Positions 47,755 through 63,710 of a stretch of 64,000 bases of DNA are shown here, piece by piece. Made by a program: the position numbers and the translations under genes. Source of the stretch: Clostridia bacterium (GTDB lineage: Bacteria; Bacillota; Clostridia; UBA1212; DUPL01); assembly GCA_050951325.1 (NCBI GenBank), contig JBMNIW010000012.1, forward strand, positions 64,001 through 128,000, written 5' to 3'. Within the stretch, counting starts at the first letter, position 1; each line of letters begins with the position of its first letter. The notes under the pieces are model-generated. The model saw only the letters and a program-made list of their open reading frames with translations. It searched no databases and was not told where the DNA came from.

Positions 47755-48438
47755 TTATTTCTTTTTGTACTCATACTCTTTTTCATTTATAAGGTTGCCG
47801 TTTGAATAAAACTCCTTTTCTCCCACCAGATTTCCCTTAATGTCGTAATAGTAGCGGGTATAAAATATCACATTGTCCTCCGAAACATAGTATTCAGCTT
47901 TTAACACTTTCCCTTTTTCGTCGTTGATGTACTTTGTAAAGGTGGTGACATCACCCAACGTACTTTTTACCATGACAAGAAACCCATTCTCGTCATACTC
48001 ATATTCTTCTACAATGCCAGTGTCTAAAAACTCCATTATTGCCACATCACCATTCTCATTGAGAGTGACATCCACCACTTCTTTCGCTTCACGACCTTCT
48101 TTTAACTCCACAATCTTATAACCGGTCTCATCATAAATCCAGTTGGTAACCCCTTCAATTTGACCATCTTTGTTGAAATTAGTAGACTCAATTTCCCTTC
48201 CCTGCTCGTCGTACCTGATAACATTGTAGAATTCAATCTCATCCTCTTCGTTATACATAGTCTTCTTGACAATGTTCTGCTCGTCATTCTCATACTCATA
48301 GGTGATATAGGATTCTACATTGCAATCCGCATCCAAATTTATTTCCTTTGTCAACAAGTACTCCGTGCTGCTGTTGCAAGCTGCCAACATAAGCAGCGTT
48401 CCCAGTATAATACATACTGTTGTGATTCTCTTTCCCAT
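47755..48438 (-). CDS. YD/RHS-like repeat lipoprotein
   Basis: Lipobox LAAC; repeated YxYDxxG. Confidence 0.75.
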   Translation of the reverse strand: MGKRITTVCIILGTLLMLAACNSSTEYLLTKEINLDADCNVESYITYEYENDEQNIVKKTMYNEEDEIEFYNVIRYDEQGREIESTNFNKDGQIEGVTNWIYDETGYKIVELKEGREAKEVVDVTLNENGDVAIMEFLDTGIVEEYEYDENGFLVMVKSTLGDVTTFTKYINDEKGKVLKAEYYVSEDNVIFYTRYYYDIKGNLVGEKEFYSNGNLINEKEYEYKKK

Positions 48439-48450
48439 TTTTTCCTCCCA

Positions 48451-49218
48451 TCAGTTTGCCTTTTTATACTCATACCTTGTAATGCCTATCTGTATGTCAT
48501 ATGGTGAAAACACCTCAATTGCAACGAGGTTTCCATTTTTATCGTAGGTATGCTTCAGGTATCTTGCAAGTTCGCCATTCTGATAATCCTGGCGTTCAAG
48601 CACTCTCCCTTTTGAGTCGTTGATATAAATAGTATATACACCGTAAGCATCATCGTTCTTCACATGGCATTTAATGAGATATCCGCTTTCATCATACTCA
48701 TATTCCTCGATAATTTTTGAGTTTAAACTCGTCACATTCTCAATCTTTAAGGTATCACCCTTGTCATTCAAGATAACTTTTCGTGTAAATTTTATGTTGG
48801 AATCCTCATCATATGTAACCTCTGTATGTCCTGATTCCTCATAGGTATTCACTTTTGTTGAGTATGCAACACCACTTTTATTGTATAGTTTCTTTTCTAT
48901 TTCCCTACCCTTATCATCATATTTGTATACTGCACGGCTTTCCAAAGAGTTTCCAATATGCTTTTCTGAAATGACAAGCTTGTTGTCCTTGTCATACTGA
49001 TATGAGATATAGTGTCTAATATTCCCGTCCTTGTCGCAATCCGACTCCTTAACCAGATTATTCTTTTTGTCGTACTCATAAAGTATGTAATACCTAACGC
49101 TTCCATCTACATCATAGACTGTCTGCTTTGTCATCAAATATTCAATTTCGCCACCGCAGGCTGACAAAGCAAGCAATGATGTCAGCAGTACGAATAATAT
49201 GGATAATCTATTTATCAT
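48451..49218 (-). CDS. YD/RHS-like repeat lipoprotein
   Basis: Lipobox LSAC; repeated YxYDxxG/N; paralog of downstream gene. Confidence 0.75.
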   Translation of the reverse strand: MINRLSILFVLLTSLLALSACGGEIEYLMTKQTVYDVDGSVRYYILYEYDKKNNLVKESDCDKDGNIRHYISYQYDKDNKLVISEKHIGNSLESRAVYKYDDKGREIEKKLYNKSGVAYSTKVNTYEESGHTEVTYDEDSNIKFTRKVILNDKGDTLKIENVTSLNSKIIEEYEYDESGYLIKCHVKNDDAYGVYTIYINDSKGRVLERQDYQNGELARYLKHTYDKNGNLVAIEVFSPYDIQIGITRYEYKKAN

Positions 49219-49390
49219 GACATCCTCCAACTGTGTTTATACGATGATTATACTGTACAGACCATTTTGGGACAACTATACTTTATCCCTATTTTATTAA
49301 CACACCGTGAACAAATCTCACATTTCATATTTTCATAAAGGGTTGTAAACATATCCATACTATGCTAAAATCAGCGCACGAGGTGATTTA

Positions 49391-50512
49391 ATGAAACTTG
49401 ATTTGGATATTGAACAATTTTGGAAAGATGATGAACTGGCCCACAAAGAGAACTGTTTTTCAAAAGAGGCCCCTCAGGTGGCTCTGGGTATTAGAATGAG
49501 TGACGAATGCGTATTTGCAGAGCTAGGAGAGGAAGGCCAGCCTTGGGGACACACTCCTCTCGAAAGAAGAATAGAGCTCAATAAAAGATACAATGAAAAG
49601 GCTTTAAAAATAGTGGGAAGAAAACTGCTGAGAGAAGAGTTTCCTGATCCGAATTCAGCATTACCTCCAGTTAAGGGGATTGGAGAAGTATTTGGAGGAC
49701 AATATGTATTTGACGGGAATACTACATGGCTCAAAAGGACTATAAACACTCCAGAAGAGTTAAAGGAAAGACTCGATATTATCGATAAGATGGATATAAG
49801 GAGTTTTATACTTCCGCAAAACTGGGAAAGCGAAAAGAAGAGAGTCTACGAAACATATGGTAAAAAACCCGGACTTTTCCGTGGTGTAAGAGGTCCGGTT
49901 ACATTGGCTACATCGGTATTTGGTACAGAAAACCTGATATTCCTTATTTACGATGACCCGGATTTGGCAAAAAGATTTTCAGACACAATTACCAGGGTAT
50001 TGTTGGCGTACATAGATATATTTATAGAAGAGGCGGGTTACACACAGGACAATTTCATTCATGGATTTGCATTCAGCGATGATGACTGTTGCCTTCTGAC
50101 ACCTGAAATGTATGAGTTCTTCGCATACCCAATTCTTAAGACGGTGTTTGAGAAAACTGCTCCAAACCCTGAAGACTGGAGATATCAGCATTCAGACTCA
50201 GACATGGGGCATTTGATTCCAATTCTTGCAAGGTTTAACTTAACAGGATGCAATTTTGGACCTACAGTCACAGTAAGGGAAATTAGAAAGCACATGCCCA
50301 ATACCCGCATAGACGGACAACTGTCTCCGTTAACTTTTATGAGAAACGACGAAGAGCAAATAACCAAGGAAGTTTTAAGGGATATTGAGATGGCAAAAGA
50401 AAATGATGCAAGAGGCCTCAACCTCACGACGGCAGGCTCAATTAACAACGGCTCTCTTCTCAGCAGCATGCGCCTTATAATGGCTTTAATTCAGAACTAT
50501 GGCAGATATTAA
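49391..50512 (+). CDS. Uroporphyrinogen decarboxylase-fold protein
   Basis: RGPVTLA, SDDD...LTPEMYEFFAYP, HSD, IDGQLSP. Confidence 0.75.
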   Translation: MKLDLDIEQFWKDDELAHKENCFSKEAPQVALGIRMSDECVFAELGEEGQPWGHTPLERRIELNKRYNEKALKIVGRKLLREEFPDPNSALPPVKGIGEVFGGQYVFDGNTTWLKRTINTPEELKERLDIIDKMDIRSFILPQNWESEKKRVYETYGKKPGLFRGVRGPVTLATSVFGTENLIFLIYDDPDLAKRFSDTITRVLLAYIDIFIEEAGYTQDNFIHGFAFSDDDCCLLTPEMYEFFAYPILKTVFEKTAPNPEDWRYQHSDSDMGHLIPILARFNLTGCNFGPTVTVREIRKHMPNTRIDGQLSPLTFMRNDEEQITKEVLRDIEMAKENDARGLNLTTAGSINNGSLLSSMRLIMALIQNYGRY

Positions 50513-50530
50513 GCAATTGGAGAGATATGA

Positions 50531-51064
50531 ATGGAAGTACGTGTATCTACTGTTGTAAATTACAATGAATACAAAACCTTTTTCAGGTTTTCAATGTTCC
50601 GGGGCAAAGGATACAGATTCAAATCTTTTGCTTCAGTTCTAATCATGCTTGCTGCAATAGCAGTATCATTGTCCGGAACCATCTTATACTATAACCCCCT
50701 TATGCTTTTTGCATTTATTTTCTCTCTGTTTATGACCATAACTCTTCTAATTATTTGGTTTTATATGCCGAGATATTCATACATAAATACATTCATAGCA
50801 AAAGGATCCAAGGACGATTTTGTGTTTTTGGATGATATATTCATGGTGAGTTCCGTAACTGAGTATATAAAAAGCCAGACAGAAATCAGCTACAGTCAGG
50901 TTTTTAAAATCTACGAAACCAACAAACACATATACATTTACCTTAGTCCTGGATTTGCTTACATAATCAACAAAAAGACATTTGTTTATCACGCAGACAT
51001 TGCGGAACTTAGAAGTTTTTTTGTATCAAAGATGCCTGATAAGTATATAAACTGTTTGTCATGA
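50531..51064 (+). CDS. YcxB-like membrane protein
   Basis: Two TM segments then ISYSQVFKIYET..IYIY....AYIINK. Confidence 0.7.
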   Translation: MEVRVSTVVNYNEYKTFFRFSMFRGKGYRFKSFASVLIMLAAIAVSLSGTILYYNPLMLFAFIFSLFMTITLLIIWFYMPRYSYINTFIAKGSKDDFVFLDDIFMVSSVTEYIKSQTEISYSQVFKIYETNKHIYIYLSPGFAYIINKKTFVYHADIAELRSFFVSKMPDKYINCLS

Positions 51065-51070
51065 AATATT

Positions 51071-51481
51071 TCATCTTAATGGTACAATCTTACGCCAAAG
51101 AGGAATCTTGAATCTTTGGCGTATTTTTTTTGCATGCAACGTTTCCTTTCTTCTGTATATCTTTGACACCACTCCAACCACATGTTCGGGAAAAACAATG
51201 CCGTCTGTTCTTTTGTACGCATCGCCTTTTGTCACGTATCCAAGGTCAGTTTTTCTGTAGACCCTGCGCAGGACAAATATACCTTCAGCAGGTTCAAGCA
51301 TAACTATGTCTCCGATATCAAGGTCCCTGCCATCGGAGTAAACAAGCTCTATCTTGTCAATTCCTTTTCTGACAAGAGGTTCCATATCACTTGTTATTGC
51401 AGTAAACCTGACACCTTCGCATACTTTCAAAAGGCTTCTAATAGCTGGGAGCAAATCCTTAACAAATATGTCCACAAGCAT
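51071..51481 (-). CDS. S24/S26 peptidase-like protein, degenerate active site
   Basis: TSDMEP, GDIVM, VLRRV, TKGDA, VVGVV. Confidence 0.7.
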   Translation of the reverse strand: MLVDIFVKDLLPAIRSLLKVCEGVRFTAITSDMEPLVRKGIDKIELVYSDGRDLDIGDIVMLEPAEGIFVLRRVYRKTDLGYVTKGDAYKRTDGIVFPEHVVGVVSKIYRRKETLHAKKIRQRFKIPLWRKIVPLR

Positions 51482-51482
51482 T

Positions 51483-51953
51483 CTAAACCCCTTTTATTAT
51501 TCTCCTTCTAATTCTTGCCACCAAAGTGTAGAGATATAACAGCTGCCTGCGAAAGATTCTAAGCTTTCTCCACATTGTAAAGACCAAACACCAAACAACA
51601 TTATTACAGTCAATGCTTAAATCTCCTCTGTATATTCTCTCAACCCTGCCAATAACATCACAAACAGGGACGCTTCCATCGCTGTAAAGGCAGGCATCCC
51701 CTATTGTATAAACCGTTCCCCCCCTCACCTTATATATTCTATGAAGTATATATTTATTGCATATTCTAAATAAAACTATATCCCCGAGCTTTACCTTGCA
51801 AAATGTACCGAGCAGAACCTTGTCTTTGTTGTGCCGTATAAAAGGCAGCATGCTGTTTCCGGACACAGTGAATTTAACCCTCAAGTTTTGTCTTAGCAAT
51901 TCCTCAACTAGAGGGAACAAATCCTTACACGACACTATTCTCTTATACGTCAT
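51483..51953 (-). CDS. S24/S26 family peptidase
   Basis: GNSMLP, GDIVLF, LHRI, IGDA, VIGRV. Confidence 0.85.
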   Translation of the reverse strand: MTYKRIVSCKDLFPLVEELLRQNLRVKFTVSGNSMLPFIRHNKDKVLLGTFCKVKLGDIVLFRICNKYILHRIYKVRGGTVYTIGDACLYSDGSVPVCDVIGRVERIYRGDLSIDCNNVVWCLVFTMWRKLRIFRRQLLYLYTLVARIRRRIIKGV

Positions 51954-51967
51954 TGCAGCCTTAACAC

Positions 51968-52786
51968 CTACAAATCAAGTATTGCCTTTTTTAGTGTCTC
52001 AACTGCCGTGTAATCCTTTACGCATTCAAGCTTCAGCATGGGTATGCTCGTTACCATGTCGTCAATATAATCCAGGGCATAGTTCATAAGCTCCACACTC
52101 CACTTTGGAGCAAATACATGTTCAGCAAGGTTTAGAAATGCTTCATAGGGATTTAGTCTTGTTGCCATGTTTCGTTTACTCTTTTCCAGCATGACAAATA
52201 CATCAATCTTTATCTTTCGATTCACAAATTCTCCTGATGTCCCGCACCAAGGCTGACCGAAGGCATGCCATACACCTTCGACTTTACGGCATAATGCTCT
52301 ATCCCCGTTTATGACCAATGCGTTTTCATAATCTCTCCACATTCTTGCATGGGTGGTCTTTCCACCAGCTGACTCCGCACATAGGATGATCCCTTTTCCG
52401 TTCCATTCAAGTACAACACCATGAAACACAACTCCTCCATAAGGAAGAACTGCGTACGAGAAGGGCTTTTTTAGTTCGTAGTATATTACATGGTCGATCC
52501 TGTCATTTTTCTTGCCTGCATAGATGCTCCACTTTCTCCAATCCTTACTTGCACTTAGAACGTTCTGGTTCTTAAGCTCAATTTTGTAACCATCTTCTGT
52601 TACATCAACCACCTTGTCGTCTTCAATAGTAATACAATTATTGTCTAACACAACTTCCAGCTCAAAATCGCTATCTTTCTTGTCACAAACAAAAGATTTG
52701 AACGCAAGGGCATGAGGTGTAAACATATCCAAATCAGCTTTGATGCAATATCCGCCAATGTTTAAATATGTATACTCCACTTCCAT
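51968..52786 (-). CDS. HPr-kinase-like P-loop protein (PadeK/ScmC-like)
   Basis: FHGVV, AESAGGKTTH, NGDR, PWCGTS. Confidence 0.8.
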   Translation of the reverse strand: MEVEYTYLNIGGYCIKADLDMFTPHALAFKSFVCDKKDSDFELEVVLDNNCITIEDDKVVDVTEDGYKIELKNQNVLSASKDWRKWSIYAGKKNDRIDHVIYYELKKPFSYAVLPYGGVVFHGVVLEWNGKGIILCAESAGGKTTHARMWRDYENALVINGDRALCRKVEGVWHAFGQPWCGTSGEFVNRKIKIDVFVMLEKSKRNMATRLNPYEAFLNLAEHVFAPKWSVELMNYALDYIDDMVTSIPMLKLECVKDYTAVETLKKAILDL

Positions 52787-52791
52787 TTCAA

Positions 52792-53106
52792 TCAGCTCTG
52801 TAACTCTCCAAAATAGAAACCTGGATGTTTTGTATTACCTATATTATCTTTCATCCCATTAGCATAAGGATCAAAGGTTATGTCTTTATTTAGATATCTG
52901 TCGAGCAAGTCATCTATAGCTGCAAATACTGCGGCAGCACTACAATCATGCAGTGTTCCGCTATTAAAACTAACATTATATGATTTATTATCAACTTTTA
53001 GAGTCCCTTTAAAGTTAAAATGTTTGTAGCCAAAACACGTATCTGCAATGCTTTCCCCTAAGCAAATTTCTTCAAATCTTAACTTTGGCTTTTCATACAT
53101 TTTCAT
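52792..53106 (-). CDS. Putative RiPP-like precursor (104 aa)
   Basis: Leader YEKPKL...GESIADT, Cys24 and Cys55, C-terminal Ser; overlaps rSAM stop; GGAG RBS. Confidence 0.75.
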   Translation of the reverse strand: MKMYEKPKLRFEEICLGESIADTCFGYKHFNFKGTLKVDNKSYNVSFNSGTLHDCSAAAVFAAIDDLLDRYLNKDITFDPYANGMKDNIGNTKHPGFYFGELQS

Positions 53107-54163
53107 ATATTTCACTCCCTTTCGTTGAGATTAGCTTTTCTAATATCTTATGACTGTATTCAGCCTCTCGGCATAGATATTTTGGATTGCCAAATAAACT
53201 CTTTGTTTCACAGTATCTCAAGGCAGGACATGCCATGCAAAACAACTTATACTTGCAATCGCGACATGCGTCTATTTGCTTCAATTCAGGCACAGTTTCC
53301 ACAAATGTCTCCCAAGCCTTTTCAAAACCCTCGGTCAATGGATCTGTCATAAACTCTCCAAGCAATTGGCATCCAATTAATTTCCCATCCCAAGTAATTG
53401 TATATGACTGGATACCTGCGTCGCATCCAAATAATTCGCTCTTCTTTTCTTCTACTGTATATTCTATCTCTATTGGCTTATCAATTAAATCCTTCGACAA
53501 TCTCTCCAAATACGCTCCATAAATAAAATCAATATTCTCCTCAGGTGACAATCTGCATGCATCCACTTCAGCAATGCCATGGCGTGTGGTTCTACAAACA
53601 ATCCTGCTCCTGCTAAAAGTAATGTCCTCTCCAAAACTCTTTGCCAGCATATATATGTTTTTGTAATCTTCAATGTTGTCTTTAATAATCGTTGTTCTAA
53701 TATTAATTGATGAAGGCAAAGTCGTTAATTTCTTCACTCCATCCAGCATTCTGTAAAAAGCATTGCCGCTACCGCACACCTTATCATAAATGGATGGATT
53801 GGAGCCATAAACAGATATTCCAATCTGATGAGGAGGACACTTTTCCAACGCATCCATTACTTTGTCGCTGACAAGAGTTGCATTGGTGTACAGGACAATA
53901 ACAAATCCCATTTTATATATTTCCGTATAAATCTCGCAAAAGTCCTTTCGCAGCATAGGTTCTCCACCTGTCAGCAAAAGCTGCAATGTTCCGCAGTCCC
54001 TTGCCTGCTTTGCGAGATCAATCCACTCTTTGGTTGTAAGTTCCCTAAGGCCCAAACTGCTTATTGTGTCCTCATCCACCCTGACAAGGCACATTTTGCA
54101 TTTCAGATTGCACCTGGCAGTCAGTTCAAAGGTACCGTTTAAAGGTATTCTCTCTTCGTGCAT
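53093..54163 (-). CDS. Radical SAM/SPASM-domain protein
   Basis: CNLKCKMC, TGGEP, YTNAT, CDAG...DGKLIGC, CRDC...FCMACP..C...LC. Confidence 0.93.
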   Translation of the reverse strand: MHEERIPLNGTFELTARCNLKCKMCLVRVDEDTISSLGLRELTTKEWIDLAKQARDCGTLQLLLTGGEPMLRKDFCEIYTEIYKMGFVIVLYTNATLVSDKVMDALEKCPPHQIGISVYGSNPSIYDKVCGSGNAFYRMLDGVKKLTTLPSSINIRTTIIKDNIEDYKNIYMLAKSFGEDITFSRSRIVCRTTRHGIAEVDACRLSPEENIDFIYGAYLERLSKDLIDKPIEIEYTVEEKKSELFGCDAGIQSYTITWDGKLIGCQLLGEFMTDPLTEGFEKAWETFVETVPELKQIDACRDCKYKLFCMACPALRYCETKSLFGNPKYLCREAEYSHKILEKLISTKGSEIYENV

Positions 54164-54164
54164 T

Positions 54165-54437
54165 TTATTCCTCCTCCATAAGAATACCAAAAGTTTTGAG
54201 TTCCTCCAAAAAGTCACTTGCGTCACTTTTTGCAATCTCCAAAGGAACCTCATACTCCCTCATAATACAAGAGACCAGCTCTTCAAAACCCTTCTCCTCT
54301 TGGAGTACTTCGAATATATATGCGCCTGTTTCATTTAAGACCATAATACCGTTAGCTTTTTTTATTGCCTCTCCAAGTGGGACTATAATATATGCATCTC
54401 TAATTTTCCTCAGTACAAAATTTTGATTGACACGCAT
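54165..54437 (-). CDS. PqqD/RRE family protein
   Basis: FVLRKI, LNETGAYIFEVL, EYEV....A..D...FLEEL...GIL. Confidence 0.9.
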   Translation of the reverse strand: MRVNQNFVLRKIRDAYIIVPLGEAIKKANGIMVLNETGAYIFEVLQEEKGFEELVSCIMREYEVPLEIAKSDASDFLEELKTFGILMEEE

Positions 54438-54450
54438 TTGCAGCACCTCG

Positions 54451-54717
54451 CTATTCTTCCAGCATTTTTTGCTCTTTAAGGATGGATATGAATGCCTGGA
54501 CATCCTGACGAGCTTCCTCTTCCGTAACGTCATATTCACTTATCAGACTGTCAACTAGTTCGTCAAATGTAGTCTCTTCCATTAGTTTACCGAACAAAAA
54601 CGCTGCTGTATTATTAACTGCAATTACACCATCCAGGTCCACCACACTATCTTCTACTGGAATAATAACGTTAGTACCTGCGATTTTGCGCATAATGTAA
54701 TTTCCGCAAACCTTCAT
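54451..54717 (-). CDS. PqqD/RRE family protein
   Basis: YIMRKIAG, VNNTAAFLF, EYDV.EEEARQDVQAFI..L. Confidence 0.9.
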   Translation of the reverse strand: MKVCGNYIMRKIAGTNVIIPVEDSVVDLDGVIAVNNTAAFLFGKLMEETTFDELVDSLISEYDVTEEEARQDVQAFISILKEQKMLEE

Positions 54718-54739
54718 TAACCCTCCTCCCTTCTTAATA

Positions 54740-55630
54740 CTAACCAACATAGACCACAAGGCGCTGTGTAACACTCACCCCTTCCGAATTACTTACAGAA
54801 TAAGTGACAGTGTACTGACCTTCCTTATTCGTATCCACTTTGCCCGAGAAACCAACTAACTCCGTTAAATCACCATCCTTCTGATCATACGCACTCTTTA
54901 TATACTCATAAGGATTAAATACATCCCCTTTTTTCAAAGCCACGGTTTTTCTTGTAAGTATCAGGGTAGGGCCTGCACTACTACCTTCTACTTCAACAAA
55001 AATGGACTTGCTGGCAACATCGTTGAACATGTTTTGTACAGTGAAAGTAAATTTGTATTTGAAAGAGTCTGCAAATGCTTCATAGTTATACGAAATGGTC
55101 CGAGTAATGTCATTTCCAAAGCCGTCATCCGCCCTTATGGCATCCTTTTCAATCAGAACAGTCACCAAATCATCAAGATCCTCACTGGTTATTACAACAT
55201 CATTTGAAACATGTATTGACGGTCCTGTGTAGTTTATGAGGCTGAGGCGTCTTTCATTGATTGCTAAATTCCCATTTGAGCCAACCACGCTGTACCTTAC
55301 AATCTTCTTTCCAATTGAAGTGTCAGTAACAATAATTACATTGACCTGGTCGGTGATGTCTGTCTTGCCGTCGATATCCAAAGCAGTCACACCTTCCATA
55401 ATGTCAAAAGCCTCTTTTCCAGAGTACTTCATATCACCGAGCGAAAGTCTGATGGTTGGTTTCTTGTTTGAATCAACACCGCTAATGTTTGAAAGGCTCG
55501 CTTTAATAATATCCTTGTTGATTGCATATGCTATGTCCTGATGAAAAAAGTACAACATAAACAAACTGACTATCGATACTGCGGCAAGCACTATTATCGT
55601 TATATTCTTAACAATCTTCAATTGCATCAC
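54740..55630 (-). CDS. Membrane-anchored Ig-like repeat (DUF5011-like) protein
   Basis: N-terminal TM; three repeats GVTALDIDG.DIT / ADDGFGNDIT / AYDQKDGDLT...VDTNKEGQYTVTYSV. Confidence 0.75.
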   Translation of the reverse strand: MMQLKIVKNITIIVLAAVSIVSLFMLYFFHQDIAYAINKDIIKASLSNISGVDSNKKPTIRLSLGDMKYSGKEAFDIMEGVTALDIDGKTDITDQVNVIIVTDTSIGKKIVRYSVVGSNGNLAINERRLSLINYTGPSIHVSNDVVITSEDLDDLVTVLIEKDAIRADDGFGNDITRTISYNYEAFADSFKYKFTFTVQNMFNDVASKSIFVEVEGSSAGPTLILTRKTVALKKGDVFNPYEYIKSAYDQKDGDLTELVGFSGKVDTNKEGQYTVTYSVSNSEGVSVTQRLVVYVG

Positions 55631-55633
55631 CTC

Positions 55634-56845
55634 CTAATTAACAAGACCATATTCTTCAAGAAGAGCAAGCCTCCTTCTTGCAACACTCAAACCTTTAACC
55701 ATTCTAGGCTCTTCTGTTCTTCTCATATATTTAATAATTCTTAATACCCACACAACAGGAAGTAAAAAAGGATGTTTCTGAAGTACTGGGTACGAATATT
55801 TAAGATACTCTCTGGAAGGAAAGCATGCCTTCAAAAACCCGAAAATGACATTCCCTTTCTTCCTGTTTAAAGATGCCACCTGTACAACCGGTCCTGAAAA
55901 AACCCTCTCGCTACTGGACTTTCCAAACACTCCTCCTTCAATCATGTCAACAAGCAAAGCAGCACGGTTTGTTACTTTCAAACTTTTGCCAAAAGGAATG
56001 CCAGAAACGTCTAAACTTATCCCCAGTTCATTATTTCCTATGTCAAACAAGCAGTAAAGCAATTGCTCACAACCGAGTTCTCTAACTATTGCAATTATTT
56101 GCTCCCAGCAAATCTGCTCATAGTACTTTTTTGCATAAAGAACCGAATCCATACACTGCCTTATACCTACACCATAACTTATCAAGTGTTTATATAAGTG
56201 AAGGAAGATAAACAGGAAGTGATCCGTGTGACAAAGGGAGTATATTTCACATCCTTCGATTTCCAGCGTTATGCATCTATCAAAGGATTCCCTAAAGTAT
56301 TTATTAAGCGCCTTCCTTACACCCGATAAACCAAATGGATTAACATGCACTTCAATACATAGATTTAAATCAGGGGATATATATGAAATTGCCTGAGCAT
56401 CCTTTGGGTCTTTGTTTGCACTTGCTGCATCCACTTTGTATCCGTATCTTAAAAGCAAGTCATGGCAAAGATCATAATCTTCCTTTCGTATGTAAATATC
56501 TTCGTCAGAAGATGTCCGAAGATCCGGTGATTCATACAAACTTCTTACAACAAGACCTTTTAACACAAGAGGCTTAACTCCGTTTTGTACAAGATAATTG
56601 TACACCTTAATGAAAGCAAAAGTTCTTTTAGTCTGGCTTATCATGTTGTATAACGCCTGACTACGCATACTCTCTTTACCTTCAAACTCAAGCAAACTTG
56701 CAGCATCATAAACAAGAGGGAGAAGGTTGTGTTTGCGGGCAAGGGTAAATACCTCATCAAGGTCCACATCTAATTCAATATTCGGCTTTTGGTTTCTTAT
56801 ATGACTTTCAATAAGCTTCAAGAACGTCTTGTAGGTCGGGTTCAA
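55634..56845 (-). CDS. Nucleotidyltransferase family protein (NTP_transf_5-like)
   Basis: VLKG...LY...RTSSDEDI, IEVH, HLYKH...GVGIRQCMD; TTG start after GGAGG. Confidence 0.85.
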   Translation of the reverse strand: MNPTYKTFLKLIESHIRNQKPNIELDVDLDEVFTLARKHNLLPLVYDAASLLEFEGKESMRSQALYNMISQTKRTFAFIKVYNYLVQNGVKPLVLKGLVVRSLYESPDLRTSSDEDIYIRKEDYDLCHDLLLRYGYKVDAASANKDPKDAQAISYISPDLNLCIEVHVNPFGLSGVRKALNKYFRESFDRCITLEIEGCEIYSLCHTDHFLFIFLHLYKHLISYGVGIRQCMDSVLYAKKYYEQICWEQIIAIVRELGCEQLLYCLFDIGNNELGISLDVSGIPFGKSLKVTNRAALLVDMIEGGVFGKSSSERVFSGPVVQVASLNRKKGNVIFGFLKACFPSREYLKYSYPVLQKHPFLLPVVWVLRIIKYMRRTEEPRMVKGLSVARRRLALLEEYGLVN

Positions 56846-58586
56846 GACTTTCACCTCCGCCAAATAACGTACACTTGCCGCCACTTACTCGGTACACTCT
56901 GTCACAAATACCAAGCACGCTTGGCCTGTGTGTTGTAAGTATGCAGGTTACTTCGCCCTTTATCCTCTTTATATTCATCAGAATCTTTCTCTCGGTATCA
57001 ACATCGAGGCTGCTGGTGGCTTCATCAAGGAGCAGTATTGGAGCTTTCCTTATCAACGCCCTGGCAATAGAGAGCCTTTGTATCTGTCCTTCCGAAAAAT
57101 TCTTTCCTCTTTCCTCAACATTTGAGTTGATTCCATCCGGCAGGTTTGATACAAAATCATACGCATCTGCCATTACCAACGCATCCTTTATTTCCTCTTC
57201 TGTTGCATCGGGCTTTGCCAGTCTCAAGTTATCTGCAATTGTACCTGAGAATAACATATTGTCCTGAGGAACATAGGAAAAAAGAAGTCTTGCCTTGTCG
57301 TCAAACACAATGTTTTTATGCTTCTCGTTAAAGGGATAAATGCCAAGTCTTCCTTTTTGATGTTTTAATTGTCCAAGCAATATCTTAAGCAGGGTGGTTT
57401 TTCCTCCTCCCGAAGGACCAACCAGTGCAATGGTCTCCCCAGGCCTTGCCAGGATGCACGCATCTTCAAACACCTTCTTTCCTTTTCTGTAACTGAAGGA
57501 AACATCCTCAAGACTAATTACCACTCCTCTTTTCCTTGCACTTTTAAGTGTCTGCTCATCATTGGTAGCATCACAGTCATCTGTTGGCTTTTCAATGATT
57601 TCCATAATTCTTCCTGCTGATGTTGTTGCAGATATGGAAGATGGGATTAAGGATATTAAGGAAGAGAAGCTTGATCTGAGCATACCTGCGAGCTGCAGGA
57701 ACAATACCATTGTTCCAAAGGTAATGAAACCTTGGTACAATCTGAATACCGCCCAGCCAAAACAAAGATATGATACAATTAGTCCGGTTATCGACATAAA
57801 CAGATGAGTGTGTATTGAAAACTTGTTGTAGTCCAGGCTTGTTGTCTTAAAGTTTTCCAACTGCTCTTTGTGTCTGTTTGTAAATACAGACTTCAGCCCC
57901 AGAGCTTTAATAGCTGCAATATTTACAAAAGACTCTTCATGGTAGGACATAAGTTTCGAACTTGCTTCCCTCATTTTTTTGTTGTGCTTCCTCATTTTCT
58001 TTACCAGTAAATCCGATACAATCATTGATACTGGTGCACTGGCAAGAGCCAATATAGCCATAACATAGTCAAAGTACATGATGATTATAAATGAGCCGGT
58101 AAACTGCAATACCCTTGTTATGAAGCTTGGTATCATGCCTACAACACTACCCGCAACAGTCCTTGCATCAGAGTTGATTCTATTTAGAAGGTCTCCTGAA
58201 TGAAAGTCCATTAAATGCTCCGAGTCAATATTTAATATGCTGTCATAGATGTCTATTCTTATGTCATTTATTACCCTTAAATCAATTTTTGAGGTAATCC
58301 TGTTGGTTAGTGCTCCTGTCAATATCTCAAACAAACCAAAAGATATGTATATTACTGCTATCGTGACAATAACTTTTATCTGCCTGTTTGCAAGGCTGTC
58401 TATTAAATATTTGGAGGCAACAGCATTGAGAAGCCCGAATATTGCGCCAATGGAAAAGAGGAAGATATAAAATGCGACTTGTGCTTTATATCTTTTTATG
58501 TACCCTAATATCCATTTTGCCTCTATCCACATTTCTTTTAAAGACCCGTCTTGGATCTTCCTCTTTATGTTAAACAGATTCACCAT
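56808..58586 (-). CDS. ABC exporter, fused permease/ATPase, no C39 peptidase domain
   Basis: Six-TM domain, GPSGGGKTT, FSEGQ, LLLDEATSSLD. Confidence 0.92.
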   Translation of the reverse strand: MVNLFNIKRKIQDGSLKEMWIEAKWILGYIKRYKAQVAFYIFLFSIGAIFGLLNAVASKYLIDSLANRQIKVIVTIAVIYISFGLFEILTGALTNRITSKIDLRVINDIRIDIYDSILNIDSEHLMDFHSGDLLNRINSDARTVAGSVVGMIPSFITRVLQFTGSFIIIMYFDYVMAILALASAPVSMIVSDLLVKKMRKHNKKMREASSKLMSYHEESFVNIAAIKALGLKSVFTNRHKEQLENFKTTSLDYNKFSIHTHLFMSITGLIVSYLCFGWAVFRLYQGFITFGTMVLFLQLAGMLRSSFSSLISLIPSSISATTSAGRIMEIIEKPTDDCDATNDEQTLKSARKRGVVISLEDVSFSYRKGKKVFEDACILARPGETIALVGPSGGGKTTLLKILLGQLKHQKGRLGIYPFNEKHKNIVFDDKARLLFSYVPQDNMLFSGTIADNLRLAKPDATEEEIKDALVMADAYDFVSNLPDGINSNVEERGKNFSEGQIQRLSIARALIRKAPILLLDEATSSLDVDTERKILMNIKRIKGEVTCILTTHRPSVLGICDRVYRVSGGKCTLFGGGESLEPDLQDVLEAY

Positions 58587-59997
58587 AATACCTCAACTTC
58601 CTGTAGTAGGGATATTTGTATAAATAACCGTACCTGTAACCGTAACTGCCTATACCCGTTTCTGTGAATGTTAAAACTGCTCCGAGCACATTCACGCGGC
58701 TGTATGACAAAGACGTCAAAGAGTCTATTATCAGACTTCTTTTGGCATAATCCTGTCTTATGCAGTAAATTGCATGGTCCGCATATTTTGCAAAAGCAAC
58801 AGCATCTGGAACCATGTGACATGGTGGAGTGTCTATTATTACAAAATCAGCCATGTTTCTAAGCATTGCAATAACTTCTACAAGGGAGTAATGTGACAAT
58901 ATCTTGTTTGGATTTTGATATGATTTGTGTCCTGCAAGTAAGCTAATATTGTATTTGTTAATATAATATATGCTGTGTTCTATGGTTTGTTCTCCCTCTA
59001 CAATCTCCCCGATACCTTTAAGAGGCATGACAATATCCAACATGTTCAGGACCGAAGGATTCCTCAAATCACCATCTACAAGGATTACTGAGTAACCCAT
59101 TTGTCCAAGAGAAATACTTAAGTTTATGGCAACGGTTGTCTTTCCTTCCTGGGGTACACTGCCTGCTATTACAATTACATTGTTCTTTTTGTCCGATGTT
59201 TCCTTTAGCAATTTCGTTCGTATCGAACGGATCGACTCGTTAAAAGCACTTCCTACTTTCTCATTCAGGATGTTTATGGAATAATCAATGTCTTTTTTTC
59301 GTCTCTTGAACTTCACCACCGGAAGCACTCCAAGGCATTCGAGGTTGAGTATTTTCCTTACATCATCCACCTTTCTTATTGTTGTTCTGGTCAATGCGTA
59401 AAGGAATATAAATCCGCAGCCAAGCACGAACCCTGCCAGAAAGCCTATCTTTGTCATACGGGAATAAATAGGTCGGTTTGTAGGAGTTGTCGGCACTTTA
59501 GGGGATGACAGCATGTTCATCTTTGTATCTCCTATTACAAACTCAGCCACTTTTGGATAGTTCCTAATTACCGAGTTAAGTATGTTGTATGCGTCATTTG
59601 GGTTTATGCTGGTTACCATTATTGTAAAAAGATTTGTGTCGGGTATTGCTACAGCGTATATACTTCCATTAAGGTAAGGTACGTTCAGATCCTCGCACAC
59701 AATTTCCTGAAGAAGATAGCTGTTTAAAATGTATGGAAATGTTACCGCCATCTGGGATGCGGTCTGACTATTGTAGTAGTAGCGGTAGCTGTACCCTGCG
59801 TAATTGTCCTCATATGCTGCAAGAATTGTGAAGGTGGCTTTTGATGTGTATAACGGAGTATACTTTCTTGCAGAGACATAAAAGAACAGCCAGGACATAA
59901 CGCTTGCAAGCACAAGCACAAGATACCACAATCTTTTTATCCCCTTAATCAAGTCACTTAGAAGTACCATAATATCTATAGAGGTTTCATTATCCAT
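58570..59997 (-). CDS. Wzz/CpsC-CpsD fused BY tyrosine kinase (copy 2)
   Basis: Two TM flanking loop; GSVPQEGKTT, VDGDLRNP, IIDTPP; Tyr tail YGYRYGYLYKYPYY. Confidence 0.9.
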   Translation of the reverse strand: MDNETSIDIMVLLSDLIKGIKRLWYLVLVLASVMSWLFFYVSARKYTPLYTSKATFTILAAYEDNYAGYSYRYYYNSQTASQMAVTFPYILNSYLLQEIVCEDLNVPYLNGSIYAVAIPDTNLFTIMVTSINPNDAYNILNSVIRNYPKVAEFVIGDTKMNMLSSPKVPTTPTNRPIYSRMTKIGFLAGFVLGCGFIFLYALTRTTIRKVDDVRKILNLECLGVLPVVKFKRRKKDIDYSINILNEKVGSAFNESIRSIRTKLLKETSDKKNNVIVIAGSVPQEGKTTVAINLSISLGQMGYSVILVDGDLRNPSVLNMLDIVMPLKGIGEIVEGEQTIEHSIYYINKYNISLLAGHKSYQNPNKILSHYSLVEVIAMLRNMADFVIIDTPPCHMVPDAVAFAKYADHAIYCIRQDYAKRSLIIDSLTSLSYSRVNVLGAVLTFTETGIGSYGYRYGYLYKYPYYRKLRYYGESV

Positions 59998-61411
59998 GAC
60001 GCACCTCCTTTGTGTCGTCTTTCTTCTTATACAAAGGGACTCTTCTGTAATAGTAGCTTTTATACATGTTGTTTTTTAGAGAGTTAATAAAAGGAAAACC
60101 TTTAAGATTGTTTAAAACAACGCCAAGCAAATGGCATTTGCTTTGCTCCAGTCTGTCAATTGCATCATTTATTTCTCCAACTCTTGCAAAGTCCTGTTTA
60201 ACTACTAGTATTGAAGCATCTGTAATGTTTGCGAGTATTTCTCCATCGGACACTGCACTAAGCGGCGGTGTATCTATGATTACGAAGTCCATTTCCTTTG
60301 CGTATCCGTCCAAAAGATTTTGAAAATCCTTGCTTGCAAGAATCTCTGCAGAGTCTTTGTATGATTCCTTGTTCAGCATGAGCCATACATTGCTCCTTTC
60401 ATCAACTTTTGGTTTTTTCCCCTGGATGAAATCCCTAAAACTACCTGCATCCTTTTTCCCTAGTATTTTGTACAACGCAGGCTTTTTTAGATCCGCATCC
60501 AACAGTAGAACTTTATGGTTGTTCTCAGCGAGAGTTAGCGCAATATTTGCACACACTGTGGACTTTCCTTCGTTTTCATTTACGCTTGTAACCAGTATGC
60601 TTTTCAATCCCATACGTTGGCAGCTGTTTTCTATTTTCATGCACAATTTTTTGTATGAGCATACAAAATCAAAACTTGCAAACATATCAGTAACAAGTGG
60701 CGTTCTCTTTGCCCGCTTTATAATCTGCCTTATGGTTTTGTACTTTTTCTCATGCCTTATGGTTGAAAGCAGTTTTGTATCCAGCTTGGAATTTGCTTGT
60801 TTTTCATTCTTTACAGTATCCCTAAAGTATGAAAGAGCACAAACTGCACAGGTTGACAAAAACGCACCTGCTGCAAAGGACAGTTTTTTTATCCTTGACT
60901 CATCCATGCTGTTTACCGGCCACCCTGACATCTCAATGTCTTCAATGACTTCAAGGTGCGCATTCCCATATATGTAATCAGACACAAGCCGGTAGTTTTC
61001 AATAATGAGCTTCAAGGTCTTGAAAGCATCTTCAGGATTTTTGGCTGTTACTCCAACCACCAAAAGGTTTGTTTCAGGTATGGCGTAGGCATCAATTTTA
61101 CCAGGAAGTTCATCATACCCTGCAATTTGAGACGCTTTCTCCTTCAAAATATCACTGTCCATTATTTGGGTGAAAATGTTTGCCATTTCTATCGTGGTAC
61201 TTAGATTGGCATACATGGAACTGGTTGCGTCTTTTGTACTCACTACAAATGTAACCTGACTTCTGTACTCAGGCACATATGTGTATCTGACATATGATAC
61301 TGCAAGCATCGCAACAACCGCTCCGCCAAGTACTATTGCCCACAAGTTGAAAAGAATATCTCTCAGCAAAGTAAAGATATCGATATCTTCGACACTAAAC
61401 TCTTTCTCCAT
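59990..61411 (-). CDS. Wzz/CpsC-CpsD fused BY tyrosine kinase (copy 1)
   Basis: TSVNENEGKST, LDADLKKP, IIDTPP; Tyr tail MYKSYYY. Confidence 0.9.
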   Translation of the reverse strand: MEKEFSVEDIDIFTLLRDILFNLWAIVLGGAVVAMLAVSYVRYTYVPEYRSQVTFVVSTKDATSSMYANLSTTIEMANIFTQIMDSDILKEKASQIAGYDELPGKIDAYAIPETNLLVVGVTAKNPEDAFKTLKLIIENYRLVSDYIYGNAHLEVIEDIEMSGWPVNSMDESRIKKLSFAAGAFLSTCAVCALSYFRDTVKNEKQANSKLDTKLLSTIRHEKKYKTIRQIIKRAKRTPLVTDMFASFDFVCSYKKLCMKIENSCQRMGLKSILVTSVNENEGKSTVCANIALTLAENNHKVLLLDADLKKPALYKILGKKDAGSFRDFIQGKKPKVDERSNVWLMLNKESYKDSAEILASKDFQNLLDGYAKEMDFVIIDTPPLSAVSDGEILANITDASILVVKQDFARVGEINDAIDRLEQSKCHLLGVVLNNLKGFPFINSLKNNMYKSYYYRRVPLYKKKDDTKEVRHG

Positions 61412-62247
61412 TACGCATTCCCTTCTTCAACAACACATACCATGCTTGTTGTATAGGTTTCGGCACCTTCGCTCACACTATAGTAGATTTTGTACTCTCC
61501 TGGCTTGGATGTGTCCAGATCGGAATAGATATTCACATGGGAGATGTCAAGAAACAGACCGTCAATGCCCGTTACAGACTGTATGTAATCTTTTGGGTTA
61601 ACTTCCTCACCAGTATTTACATACAAAACGTAACTCTCCAGTTTAATCTTTGGCGTTTTGACATTCCTTTCCCTGACCACCACCTCAAAGCTCAAATCCA
61701 CCACATCGCCTTTTGAATTTGTAACCTTGGCATTTACTGTGTACACTCCGGGTACATTTGTTGTCAGATTGCCAATGTCATACTTTATCTTGTTGCTTAT
61801 GTCCCCATCGATGAGACAATAGCATTTTATGAAGTCTTCCATGTTTATAGTACTGCCGATATAAAACTGTGGTTCATGGTCAATTTGAAATCTTGGTGAT
61901 TCGTAGTCTGTGTACTTTACCTTTCTTGTAAGTTTGGACACGTTGTTATCGCTGTCGCACACCGCATACGTTATGTTGCATACGCCCTTCTCAAGAAACT
62001 TTGATACGTTTTCAATGAGTATTTTGTCAGTCACATCCCCATCCTTGTCGTCATGGGCAGACAACCCTTCAAACAACTTGTCCTTATCCATAATGCTCAC
62101 CTCAATTACTTTACGGTCGCTTGTTATGCTCGGATATGTTCCATTGGTTTTTACTCCGTACACTCCAAACTGGATAAAGTAAAAGATGCCTGTCACAATG
62201 GACAAGAGAAAGACAACCATTCTGAAAATTTTCACAAAAACCCCCAC
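61411..62247 (-). CDS. Membrane-anchored Ig-like repeat (DUF5011-like) protein
   Basis: N-terminal TM; AHDDKDGDVT, IDGDISNKI..PGVYTV, LDTSKPGEYKIYYSV. Confidence 0.75.
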   Translation of the reverse strand: MGVFVKIFRMVVFLLSIVTGIFYFIQFGVYGVKTNGTYPSITSDRKVIEVSIMDKDKLFEGLSAHDDKDGDVTDKILIENVSKFLEKGVCNITYAVCDSDNNVSKLTRKVKYTDYESPRFQIDHEPQFYIGSTINMEDFIKCYCLIDGDISNKIKYDIGNLTTNVPGVYTVNAKVTNSKGDVVDLSFEVVVRERNVKTPKIKLESYVLYVNTGEEVNPKDYIQSVTGIDGLFLDISHVNIYSDLDTSKPGEYKIYYSVSEGAETYTTSMVCVVEEGNA

Positions 62248-62963
62248 CTATCAATATTCTCGTCTTTTAATATTCTCCTTGGATTTATATAAAATAACGT
62301 TTTTGCATATTCAGAACCGTAGCGGTAACAAATATAATCGTACGCTTCGTCTAGTCTGGTGGTTCTTTGGTATGGACTGTGGGCGTCACTAGCGACTATA
62401 TGTACAAGACCATGTTTAAGCATGTATTTGGCCAATTTTTGCGCAGTTGCTCCAAATTGACCAAGTACGCTCCCTTTGTTAACTTGAAATATACAACCTT
62501 GGCTTGCCAGTTGCATTAGTAGACTTGTGTCATCATAAAACAGCTCATATCTTTCGGGATGTGCAATGATTGGAATGAGATTTGCGTTTATGATAGATTT
62601 GATATTTGTAAGAATGTTATGAGTTAAGTCTAAGACGGGTAATTCGATTAATATGTATCTGGTGTTGTTAATTGTTATCAGTTTATTGTCCTTTACTAGG
62701 TCAACCACATCTTTTGTAAGGTAAATTTCCATTCCTTTGTACAAGGTTATTGGTATTTCTTTTGTTAAATCCTGCAGTTTCTTAAAACAGTTTTCGAACC
62801 ATTCTCCATAGTAGTTGTTATGTATCGGGATATTACTGTGCGGCGTTGCTACCAATGCTCTTACTCCGCACTGACATGCCATCTCCAGCATTCTGACGGA
62901 TTCGTAGTAAGACACAGAACCATCATCGACACCTGGTATCAGGTGTGCATGAATGTCTATCAT
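62232..62963 (-). CDS. CpsB/CapC PHP-family tyrosine phosphatase
   Basis: IDIHAH..PGVDDGS, ATPH, AHPERY, ASDAH. Confidence 0.92.
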   Translation of the reverse strand: MIDIHAHLIPGVDDGSVSYYESVRMLEMACQCGVRALVATPHSNIPIHNNYYGEWFENCFKKLQDLTKEIPITLYKGMEIYLTKDVVDLVKDNKLITINNTRYILIELPVLDLTHNILTNIKSIINANLIPIIAHPERYELFYDDTSLLMQLASQGCIFQVNKGSVLGQFGATAQKLAKYMLKHGLVHIVASDAHSPYQRTTRLDEAYDYICYRYGSEYAKTLFYINPRRILKDENIDRWGFL

Positions 62964-63057
62964 TTTATCGCCTTCTTAAATGAATGCCAAATTTCCCGTG
63001 TTGTTTGGAAACTGTGAATAAAGTGTTTTTCGTTGCTGTGTTTTGGGATTACACACA

Positions 63058-63086
63058 ATTATATCAGTGCAATTTATTAAAGTAAA
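63058..63086 (-). promoter_or_regulatory. sigmaA promoter of the 14-gene operon
   Basis: TTTACT-N17-TATAAT with extended TG. Confidence 0.6.
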
Positions 63087-63148
63087 TACTTTTGGGTAAT
63101 AACTTTATTTCCCAAGGAAATAAAAGTACAATATTCCCCAATGTTATT

Positions 63149-63640
63149 CTACTCTTTCCCTTTAATAAGCGCTTCTTTATCAAGCACTGCAAGTTTTACA
63201 TCAATGTCATAATCCTGAAGAAATTCTTTAATTGCAGAGGTAGCCACTTTAAGCGCTTCATCTTTAGGATAGCCATATATTCTGCTTGATATTAAAGGAA
63301 AAGCTATGCTTTTACATTCATGCTCCACAGCCAGTTTCAATGAGTTTGTATAAGCATTGTGTAAGAGACGCAGATTATCCTCTTTACTCCACTGGCTGTA
63401 TATGGGTCCTGCAGTGTGGATTACATACTTTGCAGGCAGATTAAAGCCAGGGGTAATAACTGCTTCTCCTGTTTTTATGGGTGCAAGTTTGTTGCATGCT
63501 TCTTGAAGTTTGCTTGCTCCGGCAGCTCTAAAAATAGCTCCGCAAACACCGCCACCCATTTTTAGCTGGGTGTTGGCAGCGTTGACAATCGCATCCACCT
63601 TCAATTTTGTTATGTCCTGCTGAACAATCTCAAATGACAT
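63149..63640 (-). CDS. Macro domain protein
   Basis: DIT, AIVNAAN, GGGVCGAI, VIHTAGP, SIAFPLIS. Confidence 0.92.
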   Translation of the reverse strand: MSFEIVQQDITKLKVDAIVNAANTQLKMGGGVCGAIFRAAGASKLQEACNKLAPIKTGEAVITPGFNLPAKYVIHTAGPIYSQWSKEDNLRLLHNAYTNSLKLAVEHECKSIAFPLISSRIYGYPKDEALKVATSAIKEFLQDYDIDVKLAVLDKEALIKGKE

Positions 63641-63679
63641 TGCACAACCTCCATTAGACAGCTTTTATCAAATAAAATA

Positions 63680-63710
63680 GCCAGCAGCTCGCTTATCGAA
63701 ACTGCTGGCA
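63680..63710 (-). terminator. Intrinsic terminator
   Basis: GCCAGCAG...CTGCTGGC hairpin followed by T-rich run on minus strand. Confidence 0.65.

Follow-up and report, generated by a model that had tools for sequence, protein, structure and literature searches.

A probable protein-sized precursor gene overlapping a radical-SAM gene in a Clostridia operon that resembles linear polyphosphorylated peptide pathways

In a 64,000-nucleotide stretch of a Clostridia bacterium genome (assembly GCA_050951325.1, contig JBMNIW010000012.1, positions 64,001 to 128,000; hereafter the window), we focused on a short open reading frame (ORF) at 52792-53106 on the minus strand. The ORF list and its translation give a product of 104 residues plus a stop codon, MKMYEKPKLRFEEICLGESIADTCFGY...GELQS. 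An AAGGGAG ribosome-binding site lies 7-8 nt upstream of its ATG (53106), and its start overlaps by 14 nt the 3' end of an ORF for a radical S-adenosylmethionine (SAM) enzyme; both belong to a series of 14 minus-strand genes spaced at -89 to +22 nt. We find it fairly probable that the ORF product is the substrate of a pathway that is related to the one for linear polyphosphorylated peptides (LPPs) and includes a radical-SAM enzyme.

The translation and the GC count bear out much of what the first-pass annotation had read from this ORF: its boundaries, a YxxPxL motif (Y4, P7, L9; YEKPKL), an abundance of aromatic residues (15 in all), an ELQS end and a GC content of 33%, which is 0.33 over 52801-53100 against 0.40 for the whole window. 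That annotation counted two cysteines; C24 and C55 are indeed present, but C15 is a third. From the motif register, we divide the protein into a leader (residues 1-19), a junction with the sequence IADTCFGY (20-27), a variable region (28-90) and a tail that runs to Ser104. The predicted leader, which contains YEKPKL, is encoded at 53050-53106 on the minus strand, its end placed at a putative S19/I20 cleavage site by the register of the LPP motif. The description of this leader as lasso-type survives only in part: YxxPxL keeps a conserved register across the family, but the G-x5-T element that had been cited with it (G17-x5-T23) does not. Lasso leaders have the spacing Lx3G, unlike the L9-x7-G17 of the precursor, and among 20 aligned relatives only two share G17 and six share T23, so Gx5T is no family feature. 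We rejected it as a lasso-type motif; as far as the alignments tell, this part of the supposed lasso leader is a chance occurrence.

Neither Pfam nor NCBIfam contained a family matching the precursor, 20 long relatives, 7 short ones or 3 leader pieces, and a word-index homologue search with the single precursor protein returned only a 99%-identical copy. An exhaustive search yielded two true homologues (108 and 100 aa) and one fragment, together with a spurious repeat protein (P0003, 1660 aa) that we discarded as a low-complexity match, while the genomes of 60 relatives gave matches at chance level only. A profile search retrieved 99 clusters of 88-129 aa, none of them named beyond 'hypothetical'. 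In the ESM Atlas the precursor found only unnamed Bacillota clusters, with structure matches at template-modelling scores below 0.5.

We then searched public genomes with the radical-SAM protein and examined the best 35 of 80 loci (L009-L043). In 27 of them the radical-SAM gene is immediately followed by a YxxP-leader ORF: 19 loci carry long precursors (93-143 aa) and eight carry short ones (49-72 aa, 10 ORFs). The other eight (L036-L043) have a different layout, without a YxxP-leader ORF at that place. Tandem precursor genes occur at two of the short-precursor loci (L031:5007-5338 and L033:7066-7453).

Alignment of these sequences revealed a small set of fixed positions. Y4, P7, C24 and C55 are invariant in 20/20 aligned long members and throughout a 75-row alignment (75/75), a leader and cysteine pattern beyond chance; the 20 long precursors all have YxxPx[LMIF], and W/F25 is nearly invariant among them. 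Leaders of long and short precursors can be aligned with one another, and all 19 sequences keep Y, P and the first Cys. The first-pass annotation had staked its precursor reading on leader conservation at homologous loci, and the leader is indeed kept (Y and P in 19/19). Among 101 database members, Y..P...C[WF] is present in 95, the six misses being N-terminally truncated gene calls; 98 end in Ser and 95 in Trp-Ser. A terminal Ser is also found in 17 of the 19 locus-derived long ORFs, the exceptions being L013 and L019. The L013 precursor (L013:7103-7531), which lacks the terminal Ser, carries a Pro/Thr-rich C-terminal extension with GWP repeats, which may reflect a frameshift or a fusion or may be a genuine variant. 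Within the window's subgroup of eight precursors, conservation differs by region: pairwise identity is 0.49 for the leader (residues 1-19), rises to 0.68 at the junction (20-27), drops to 0.17-0.18 across the middle and is 0.32 for the tail. These regional identities, with the terminal Ser in 98/101, reproduce the logo that had been predicted from the sequence alone: a conserved leader, a Cys-aromatic junction, a terminal Ser and a variable middle.

Three minus-strand codons stand out from these alignments. That of Cys24 (53035-53037), invariant and followed by W/F, is a candidate site for the radical-SAM enzyme; that of Cys55 (52942-52944), invariant in the long family, falls in the structure models after the strands and just before a helix at residues 57-72; and that of the C-terminal Ser104 (52795-52797) is a candidate phosphorylation site, with precedent in the lasso-peptide kinases. 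In the model of the window's precursor, a hairpin (residues 28-52) precedes the 57-72 helix and residues 80-104 form a disordered tail, and the model of a better-sampled relative has three strands and a long helix; a Foldseek search of the PDB with the better model returned nothing at E<=0.001. The models suggest a core that is small and partly folded, with the two Cys flanking the sheet.

In order of transcription, and all on the minus strand, the operon opens with a CpsB-type phosphatase (62232-62963; PF19567, 6.4e-65) and a membrane-anchored immunoglobulin (Ig)-like protein (copy 2, 61411-62247). Two fusions of a Wzz-type membrane domain to a bacterial tyrosine kinase (BY-kinase)-type P-loop ATPase follow, both with Tyr-rich tails: copy 2 (59990-61411) matches PF02706 at 2.6e-7 and has a ParA-type P-loop, and copy 1 (58570-59997) has its Wzz domain assigned by paralogy, the Pfam match being confined to copy 2. 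Next come an MsbA-like ABC exporter (56808-58586; ABC_membrane and ABC_tran, with MsbA_rel at 6.7e-82, under its cut-off), an NTP_transf_5 nucleotidyltransferase-family protein (55634-56884; PF14907, 2.3e-42), which is a candidate of the PsmN/LppN type, and the other membrane-anchored Ig-like protein (copy 1, 54740-55630). Two PqqD-type RiPP (ribosomally synthesised and post-translationally modified peptide) recognition elements (RREs), the radical-SAM/SPASM enzyme, the precursor, a P-loop kinase-like protein and two S24/S26-like peptidase homologues complete the run. The first-pass annotation had overlooked the kinase, nucleoside triphosphate (NTP) transferase, SipW-like peptidase and capsule-kinase genes, and it is these that place the system next to the LPPs. 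Leaving aside frames internal to larger genes, the precursor is the only YxxP-type ORF of 30 aa or more between 50500 and 63700. Promoter and terminator scans performed no better than shuffles.

The same partners recur elsewhere. Counting by tblastn with the window's proteins in the 35 loci, with flanks of at most 6 kb and several short contigs among them, we found the kinase-like gene in 34, the S26-like peptidase in 27, PqqD in 26, the ABC exporter in 17 and NTP_transf_5 in 11. Wzz/BY-kinase genes are present in 16/35 loci and in 14/19 of those with long precursors, the Ig-like gene in 13 and CpsB in 9, and the CpsB, Wzz/BY-kinase and Ig-like genes stand in three different orders relative to the radical-SAM core. 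The set of CpsB, two Wzz/BY-kinase fusions and an Ig-like protein accompanies the radical-SAM cassette at L010, L012-L014, L016-L018, L020-L025 and L028. Flippase or Wzy-type genes adjoin L011, L013 and L019, while the window, L012, L021 and L023 have no glycosyltransferases nearby.

Both RREs match PF05402 above its cut-off: copy 1 (54451-54717, 5.8e-15) is nearer the single RRE of related loci and copy 2 (54165-54437, 2.2e-13) is more diverged. They are the only PqqD genes in the genome, which is 96% complete. Against solved structures, the RRE profile matched the lasso B1 proteins TbiB1 (9.8e-9) and TfuB1 (8.8e-8) best, then the two structures of 2026, PbaB1 (9x90, 1.9e-6) and LppB (9x8z_B, 1.8e-5), and true PqqD at only 0.1. 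A predicted complex between RRE copy 1 and the first 40 residues of the precursor scored 0.31 against a mark of 0.32 and bears on binding in neither direction.

The radical-SAM/SPASM enzyme (53093-54163, minus strand; PF04055, 8.7e-20) probably starts at M31 of its longest ORF, which extends to 54253. It combines a CX3CX2C motif with seven C-terminal cysteines, a full SPASM complement, and all ten (C18, C22, C25, C247, C265, C300, C303, C309, C312 and C331) are invariant in 16/16 sequences. Its nearest solved structures are PqqE (6.5e-14) and then SkfB (6.4e-10). The best NCBIfam match is ScmE (5.1e-32), with WgkB second (2.5e-28), and the NCBIfam scan placed the enzyme above the cut-off of no curated maturase family.

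The kinase-like protein (51968-52786, minus strand), for which ScmC (1.6e-4) was the sole NCBIfam match, is an HPr-kinase-like P-loop protein and a candidate kinase of the LppK/PadeK type, in whose family a His, the P-loop Lys and an Asp (H122, K143 and D162) are invariant. A profile of the family retrieved the genome's own HprK gene at 3.5e-4, and hhalign aligned the two over 74 columns covering the His/P-loop/Asp core (92% probability, E 5.8e-7). The first of the two peptidases (51483-51953, minus strand) is a soluble homologue of SipW/archaeal-type signal peptidases (Peptidase_S24, 3.8e-6; TIGR02228, 2.7e-7, under its cut-off) and a candidate LppS-like leader peptidase. Its motifs GNSMLP (S34), LHR (H71) and GD...D (D86 and D92) supply a Ser/His/Asp/Asp set that is kept in 19 of 20 aligned homologues, including all 18 from other loci; the miss is the window's second copy (51071-51481, minus strand), a degenerate paralogue. 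This copy is probably non-catalytic, since the alignment shows its catalytic Ser replaced by Asp and its His by Arg. In the window, RRE and SipW-like peptidase genes both occur as tandem duplicates (54165-54717 and 51071-51953), most related loci having one of each, and the duplicates might form a specialised pair of RRE and pseudo-peptidase. Extra HPr-kinase-like and PqqD-like paralogues lie near the cassette at L027:10989-12051, L030:8704-11638, L032:9800-10860 and L035:1866-2357; these may be second cassettes or lasso-type clusters, as described for LPP neighbours.

LPPs were described from the lpp cluster of Paenibacillus alginolyticus (Popov et al., Nat Commun 2026, PMC13381572). As set out in the main text of that paper, LPP precursors of 35-200 aa share the motif YxxPxVLxHQxIxFETxxS and are served by a discrete RRE, LppB; the HprK-like kinase LppK polyphosphorylates core Ser3, and the SipW-like peptidase LppS (S29, H68, D93), which requires LppB, cleaves after F-3 E-2 T-1. 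The clusters also contain an MsbA-like pump and an NTP transferase and often lie inside capsule loci, and six parts suffice for a product (PMC13381572, main text). With such a size range on record, the earlier description of the window's precursor as unusually long loses weight.

The window has counterparts of all six parts, namely precursor, RRE, kinase, peptidase, exporter and NTP transferase, those of the precursor and the kinase being candidates. The RRE is discrete and of the PqqD fold, with LppB matched at 1.8e-5; the SipW-like peptidase has the Ser/His/Asp set; and an MsbA-like exporter accompanies the PF14907 NTP transferase. The HprK-like protein and the NTP transferase are candidate counterparts of LppK and LppN. 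The leaders also agree in register, in part. If Y4 is taken as -16, G17-E18-S19 fall at -3 to -1, where five of the eight closest relatives have F-E-K, with a predicted core from I20; Y, P, the hydrophobic residue five positions after Y (at -11) and E at -2 then coincide with the LPP motif, whereas the H-Q pair is absent, G stands for F at -3 and D for S at core position +3. No LppA leader chain turned up when the PDB sequences were searched with profiles of the precursor and of its leader. Both systems are tied to capsule loci.

There are also differences from LPPs. The window adds a radical-SAM/SPASM gene, which overlaps that of the precursor; its family has an invariant Cys pair and a near-invariant C-terminal Ser; its hosts are Clostridia-type anaerobes, not Bacilli; and the CpsB and Wzz/BY-kinase genes lie within the operon itself. 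LPPs are defined as linear products with phosphorylation as the sole primary modification, and the gene content here departs from that definition in having a radical-SAM gene beside the precursor (27/35 loci). The words 'radical', 'rSAM' and 'SPASM' have 0 occurrences in the main text of PMC13381572. Our literature search returned no paper on a combined LPP-type/radical-SAM cassette and, from 2025 on, none containing both 'polyphosphorylated peptide' and 'radical SAM'. What is new here is the protein-sized precursor subfamily and the conserved co-operonic module of CpsB, double Wzz-BY-kinase and Ig-like genes.

Phosphorylated lasso peptides offer a second comparison. According to passages in PMC6993621 and PMC9266682, the kinases PadeK, ThcoK and PsmK act on the linear lasso precursor, at its conserved C-terminal Ser, and PsmN is required for the addition of hexose to the phosphate; an HPr kinase in lasso clusters is mentioned by Letzel 2014. 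The window resembles the paeninodin (PadeK) and pseudomycoidin (PsmK/PsmN) systems in its YxxPxL-type leader, its B1-like RRE, its pairing of a candidate kinase with an NTP transferase and the conserved C-terminal Ser of its precursor. It differs in having neither a macrolactam cyclase nor a B2 peptidase in the cassette, in a core of ~85 residues and in a Thr at -2 that is not conserved (T23, 6/20). The absence of a lasso cyclase, which the first-pass annotation had noted, extends beyond the cassette: the 96%-complete genome has 0 matches to PF13471 (lasso B2), and its only match to Asn_synthase (PF00733) is a marginal one of 21.7 bits in a 274-aa frame ~30 kb away. We read the locus as a combination of LPP and phosphorylated-lasso tailoring with a radical-SAM enzyme.

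Two further radical-SAM systems invite comparison. ScmE (radical-SAM), ScmC (kinase-like) and ScmD (one RRE) of the SynChlorMet (SCM) system (TIGR04248-04251) are the best NCBIfam matches of their counterparts, and the logic of PqqD, radical-SAM/SPASM and kinase-like protein is the same, but the scores fall far below the curated cut-offs (ScmE 111.2 versus 400 bits, ScmC 21.2 versus 125, ScmD 19.3 versus 100) and the window has one radical-SAM enzyme, not two; the literature search found no paper containing 'SynChlorMet'. Sacti- and ranthipeptide maturases of the SkfB and CteB/PapB types share a SPASM enzyme and Cys-containing precursors with the window, and SkfB is its second-nearest solved relative. 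They are set apart by the lack of any curated family above cut-off, by the window's discrete rather than fused RRE, by its far larger core and by its kinase and peptidase partners.

Starting from the gene, its family, the invariant residues, the conserved neighbourhood and the enzyme classes, which the analysis shows, we propose the following sequence of events. A PqqD-type RRE would bind the N-terminal YEKPKL leader, and the radical-SAM/SPASM enzyme would modify the core at or near the junction IAD-x-C-W/F-G/A-Y, most likely by forming a thioether or similar cross-link via Cys24 and/or Cys55, which are predicted to flank the beta-hairpin. The HPr-kinase-like enzyme would phosphorylate the near-invariant C-terminal Ser104 in the manner of the lasso-peptide kinases, and this phosphate may in turn be decorated by the NTP_transf_5 protein. 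Leader removal near S19/I20 would fall to the SipW-like peptidase, assisted by an RRE, and the MsbA-like pump would export a partly folded product of ~85 residues.

The chemistry of the cross-link is where this scheme has its most serious competitor. The same precursor could instead receive a non-sulfur cross-link of the PqqE or streptide kind (aromatic C-C, C-N or C-O, at W/F25 or Y27), with the Cys pair serving as a disulfide or metal site. The nearest solved relative of the radical-SAM enzyme, PqqE, does form C-C cross-links, the second-best NCBIfam match, WgkB (2.5e-28), is of the Lys-Trp type, and W/F25 is nearly invariant in an aromatic-rich junction. However, long and short precursors have just one invariant core residue in common, the first Cys; in the short cores no aromatic residue is conserved beyond it, and SkfB, the second-nearest solved relative, is a thioether former; we regard a non-sulfur link as unlikely. 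That the radical-SAM enzyme acts on another operon protein or a small molecule, so that the precursor, of LPP type, would undergo phosphorylation and cleavage alone, strikes us as very improbable. The six LPP parts are enough for a product in the published system (PMC13381572, main text), and the enzyme exceeds the cut-off of no curated peptide-maturase family; yet its gene is directly upstream of the precursor in 27/35 loci and overlaps it in the window, a discrete RRE adjoins it, and the precursors have, immediately beyond the leader, an invariant Cys that the published LPP motif lacks. Least credible of all is an accessory, immunity or scaffold protein that is no substrate, for a size of ~100 aa, models with a small sheet-plus-helix domain and the fact that no product has ever been detected are set against an N-terminal leader motif of the kind recognised by RREs, in a register shared with LPP and short RiPP-like precursors, and the lack of any other such ORF in 50500-63700.

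Several observations weigh against the substrate reading or against individual steps of the proposed pathway. The residue that aligns with the phosphorylated Ser3 of LPPs is a near-invariant Asp in the window's family, and short-precursor relatives keep the kinase gene yet end in Ser in only 1/10, which indicates that the kinase target may differ. The sequence signals behind the kinase assignment are weak: its profile reached PDB HPr kinases only at E 0.018, phmmer with the protein found 0 matches in the PDB, Hpr_kinase_C is unmatched at E<=1 in the window's protein (11/19 relatives match, best E 0.0013), and the family has one Asp (NGD), compared with the His-Lys-Asp-Asp set reported for lasso kinases. 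LppN is inactive in the published system, according to the main text of PMC13381572, and NTP_transf_5 is present in only 11/35 loci within their 6-kb flanks. The precursor models are of low confidence, with predicted local distance difference test (pLDDT) values of 57.5 for the window's protein and 65.1 for the better-sampled relative (predicted TM score 0.52). Finally, contigs from four metatranscriptome libraries, from four studies, match the cassette at 99% identity or more, one of them (52846-53088) inside the precursor ORF and another (53031-53290) across the radical-SAM/precursor junction, but such contigs may stem from DNA carry-over and are no proof of transcription. We did not count as evidence a single-contig 'joint' at 51993-57182 (run X16, side 21), nor the parts of the cassette free of RNA-library contigs.

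Anaerobic digesters are a habitat of the organism. Every sampled word of 51000-56000 is present in 14 DNA runs from bioreactor and digester metagenomes, with the source samples possibly among them. In a class-level genome sample, a long precursor was found in 1 of 398 genomes scored, the organism's own, and related loci are spread over several Clostridia families, which suggests a rare or patchy distribution of the long-precursor family. The family is present in Clostridia of gut and rumen. A strain variant at 53102 (T>A on the plus strand, changing Lys2 to Ile) appears in the 53031-53290 contig, from RNA library run X18, and in the database protein P0001. As the only variant seen, K2I lends no support to the suggested cassette that varies between strains. 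The supported portions of the first-pass annotation are the precursor-type gene, the YxxP leader and the coupling to PqqD and radical-SAM genes.

That CpsB, two Wzz/BY-kinase fusions and two Ig-like proteins share one operon with the precursor suggests a role at the cell surface or in the matrix rather than that of a classical bacteriocin. A more specific picture, which we offer as doubtful, is that the product is an ~85-residue cross-linked protein with a phospho- or phosphoglycosyl group on its last Ser, that it is not antimicrobial, and that it works with the CpsB/Wzz-BY-kinase/Ig-like module. Secreted or anchored, it could for instance prime, cap or regulate the assembly of capsule or biofilm matrix. 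If true, a ribosomal protein modification pathway would be built into the chain-length and tyrosine-kinase machinery for polysaccharides. With a digester host and a family in gut and rumen, the product may be relevant to biofilm or surface biology there. LPPs themselves were first reported in 2026; the locus adds a natural hybrid of the LPP pathway and a radical-SAM/SPASM enzyme acting, on our reading, on protein-sized substrates, with Cys24, Cys55 and Ser104 as candidate sites, and its co-operonic CpsB and two Wzz/BY-kinase fusions, in three gene orders, give a handle on why phosphorylated RiPPs occupy capsule loci.

A few further features surround the cassette. Some 7-9 kb past the window end in the same genome (L089:6823-8899), a second CpsB-like gene is accompanied by a separate BY-kinase-type ATPase and a NusG-like gene, in what looks like a conventional polysaccharide locus. 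Downstream of the cassette, at 47755-49230, are two paralogous lipoprotein-like genes with weak matches to RHS/YD repeats, and at L089:1225-3397 a tandem pair of DUF7309 and DUF6930 genes lies upstream of a macro-domain gene.

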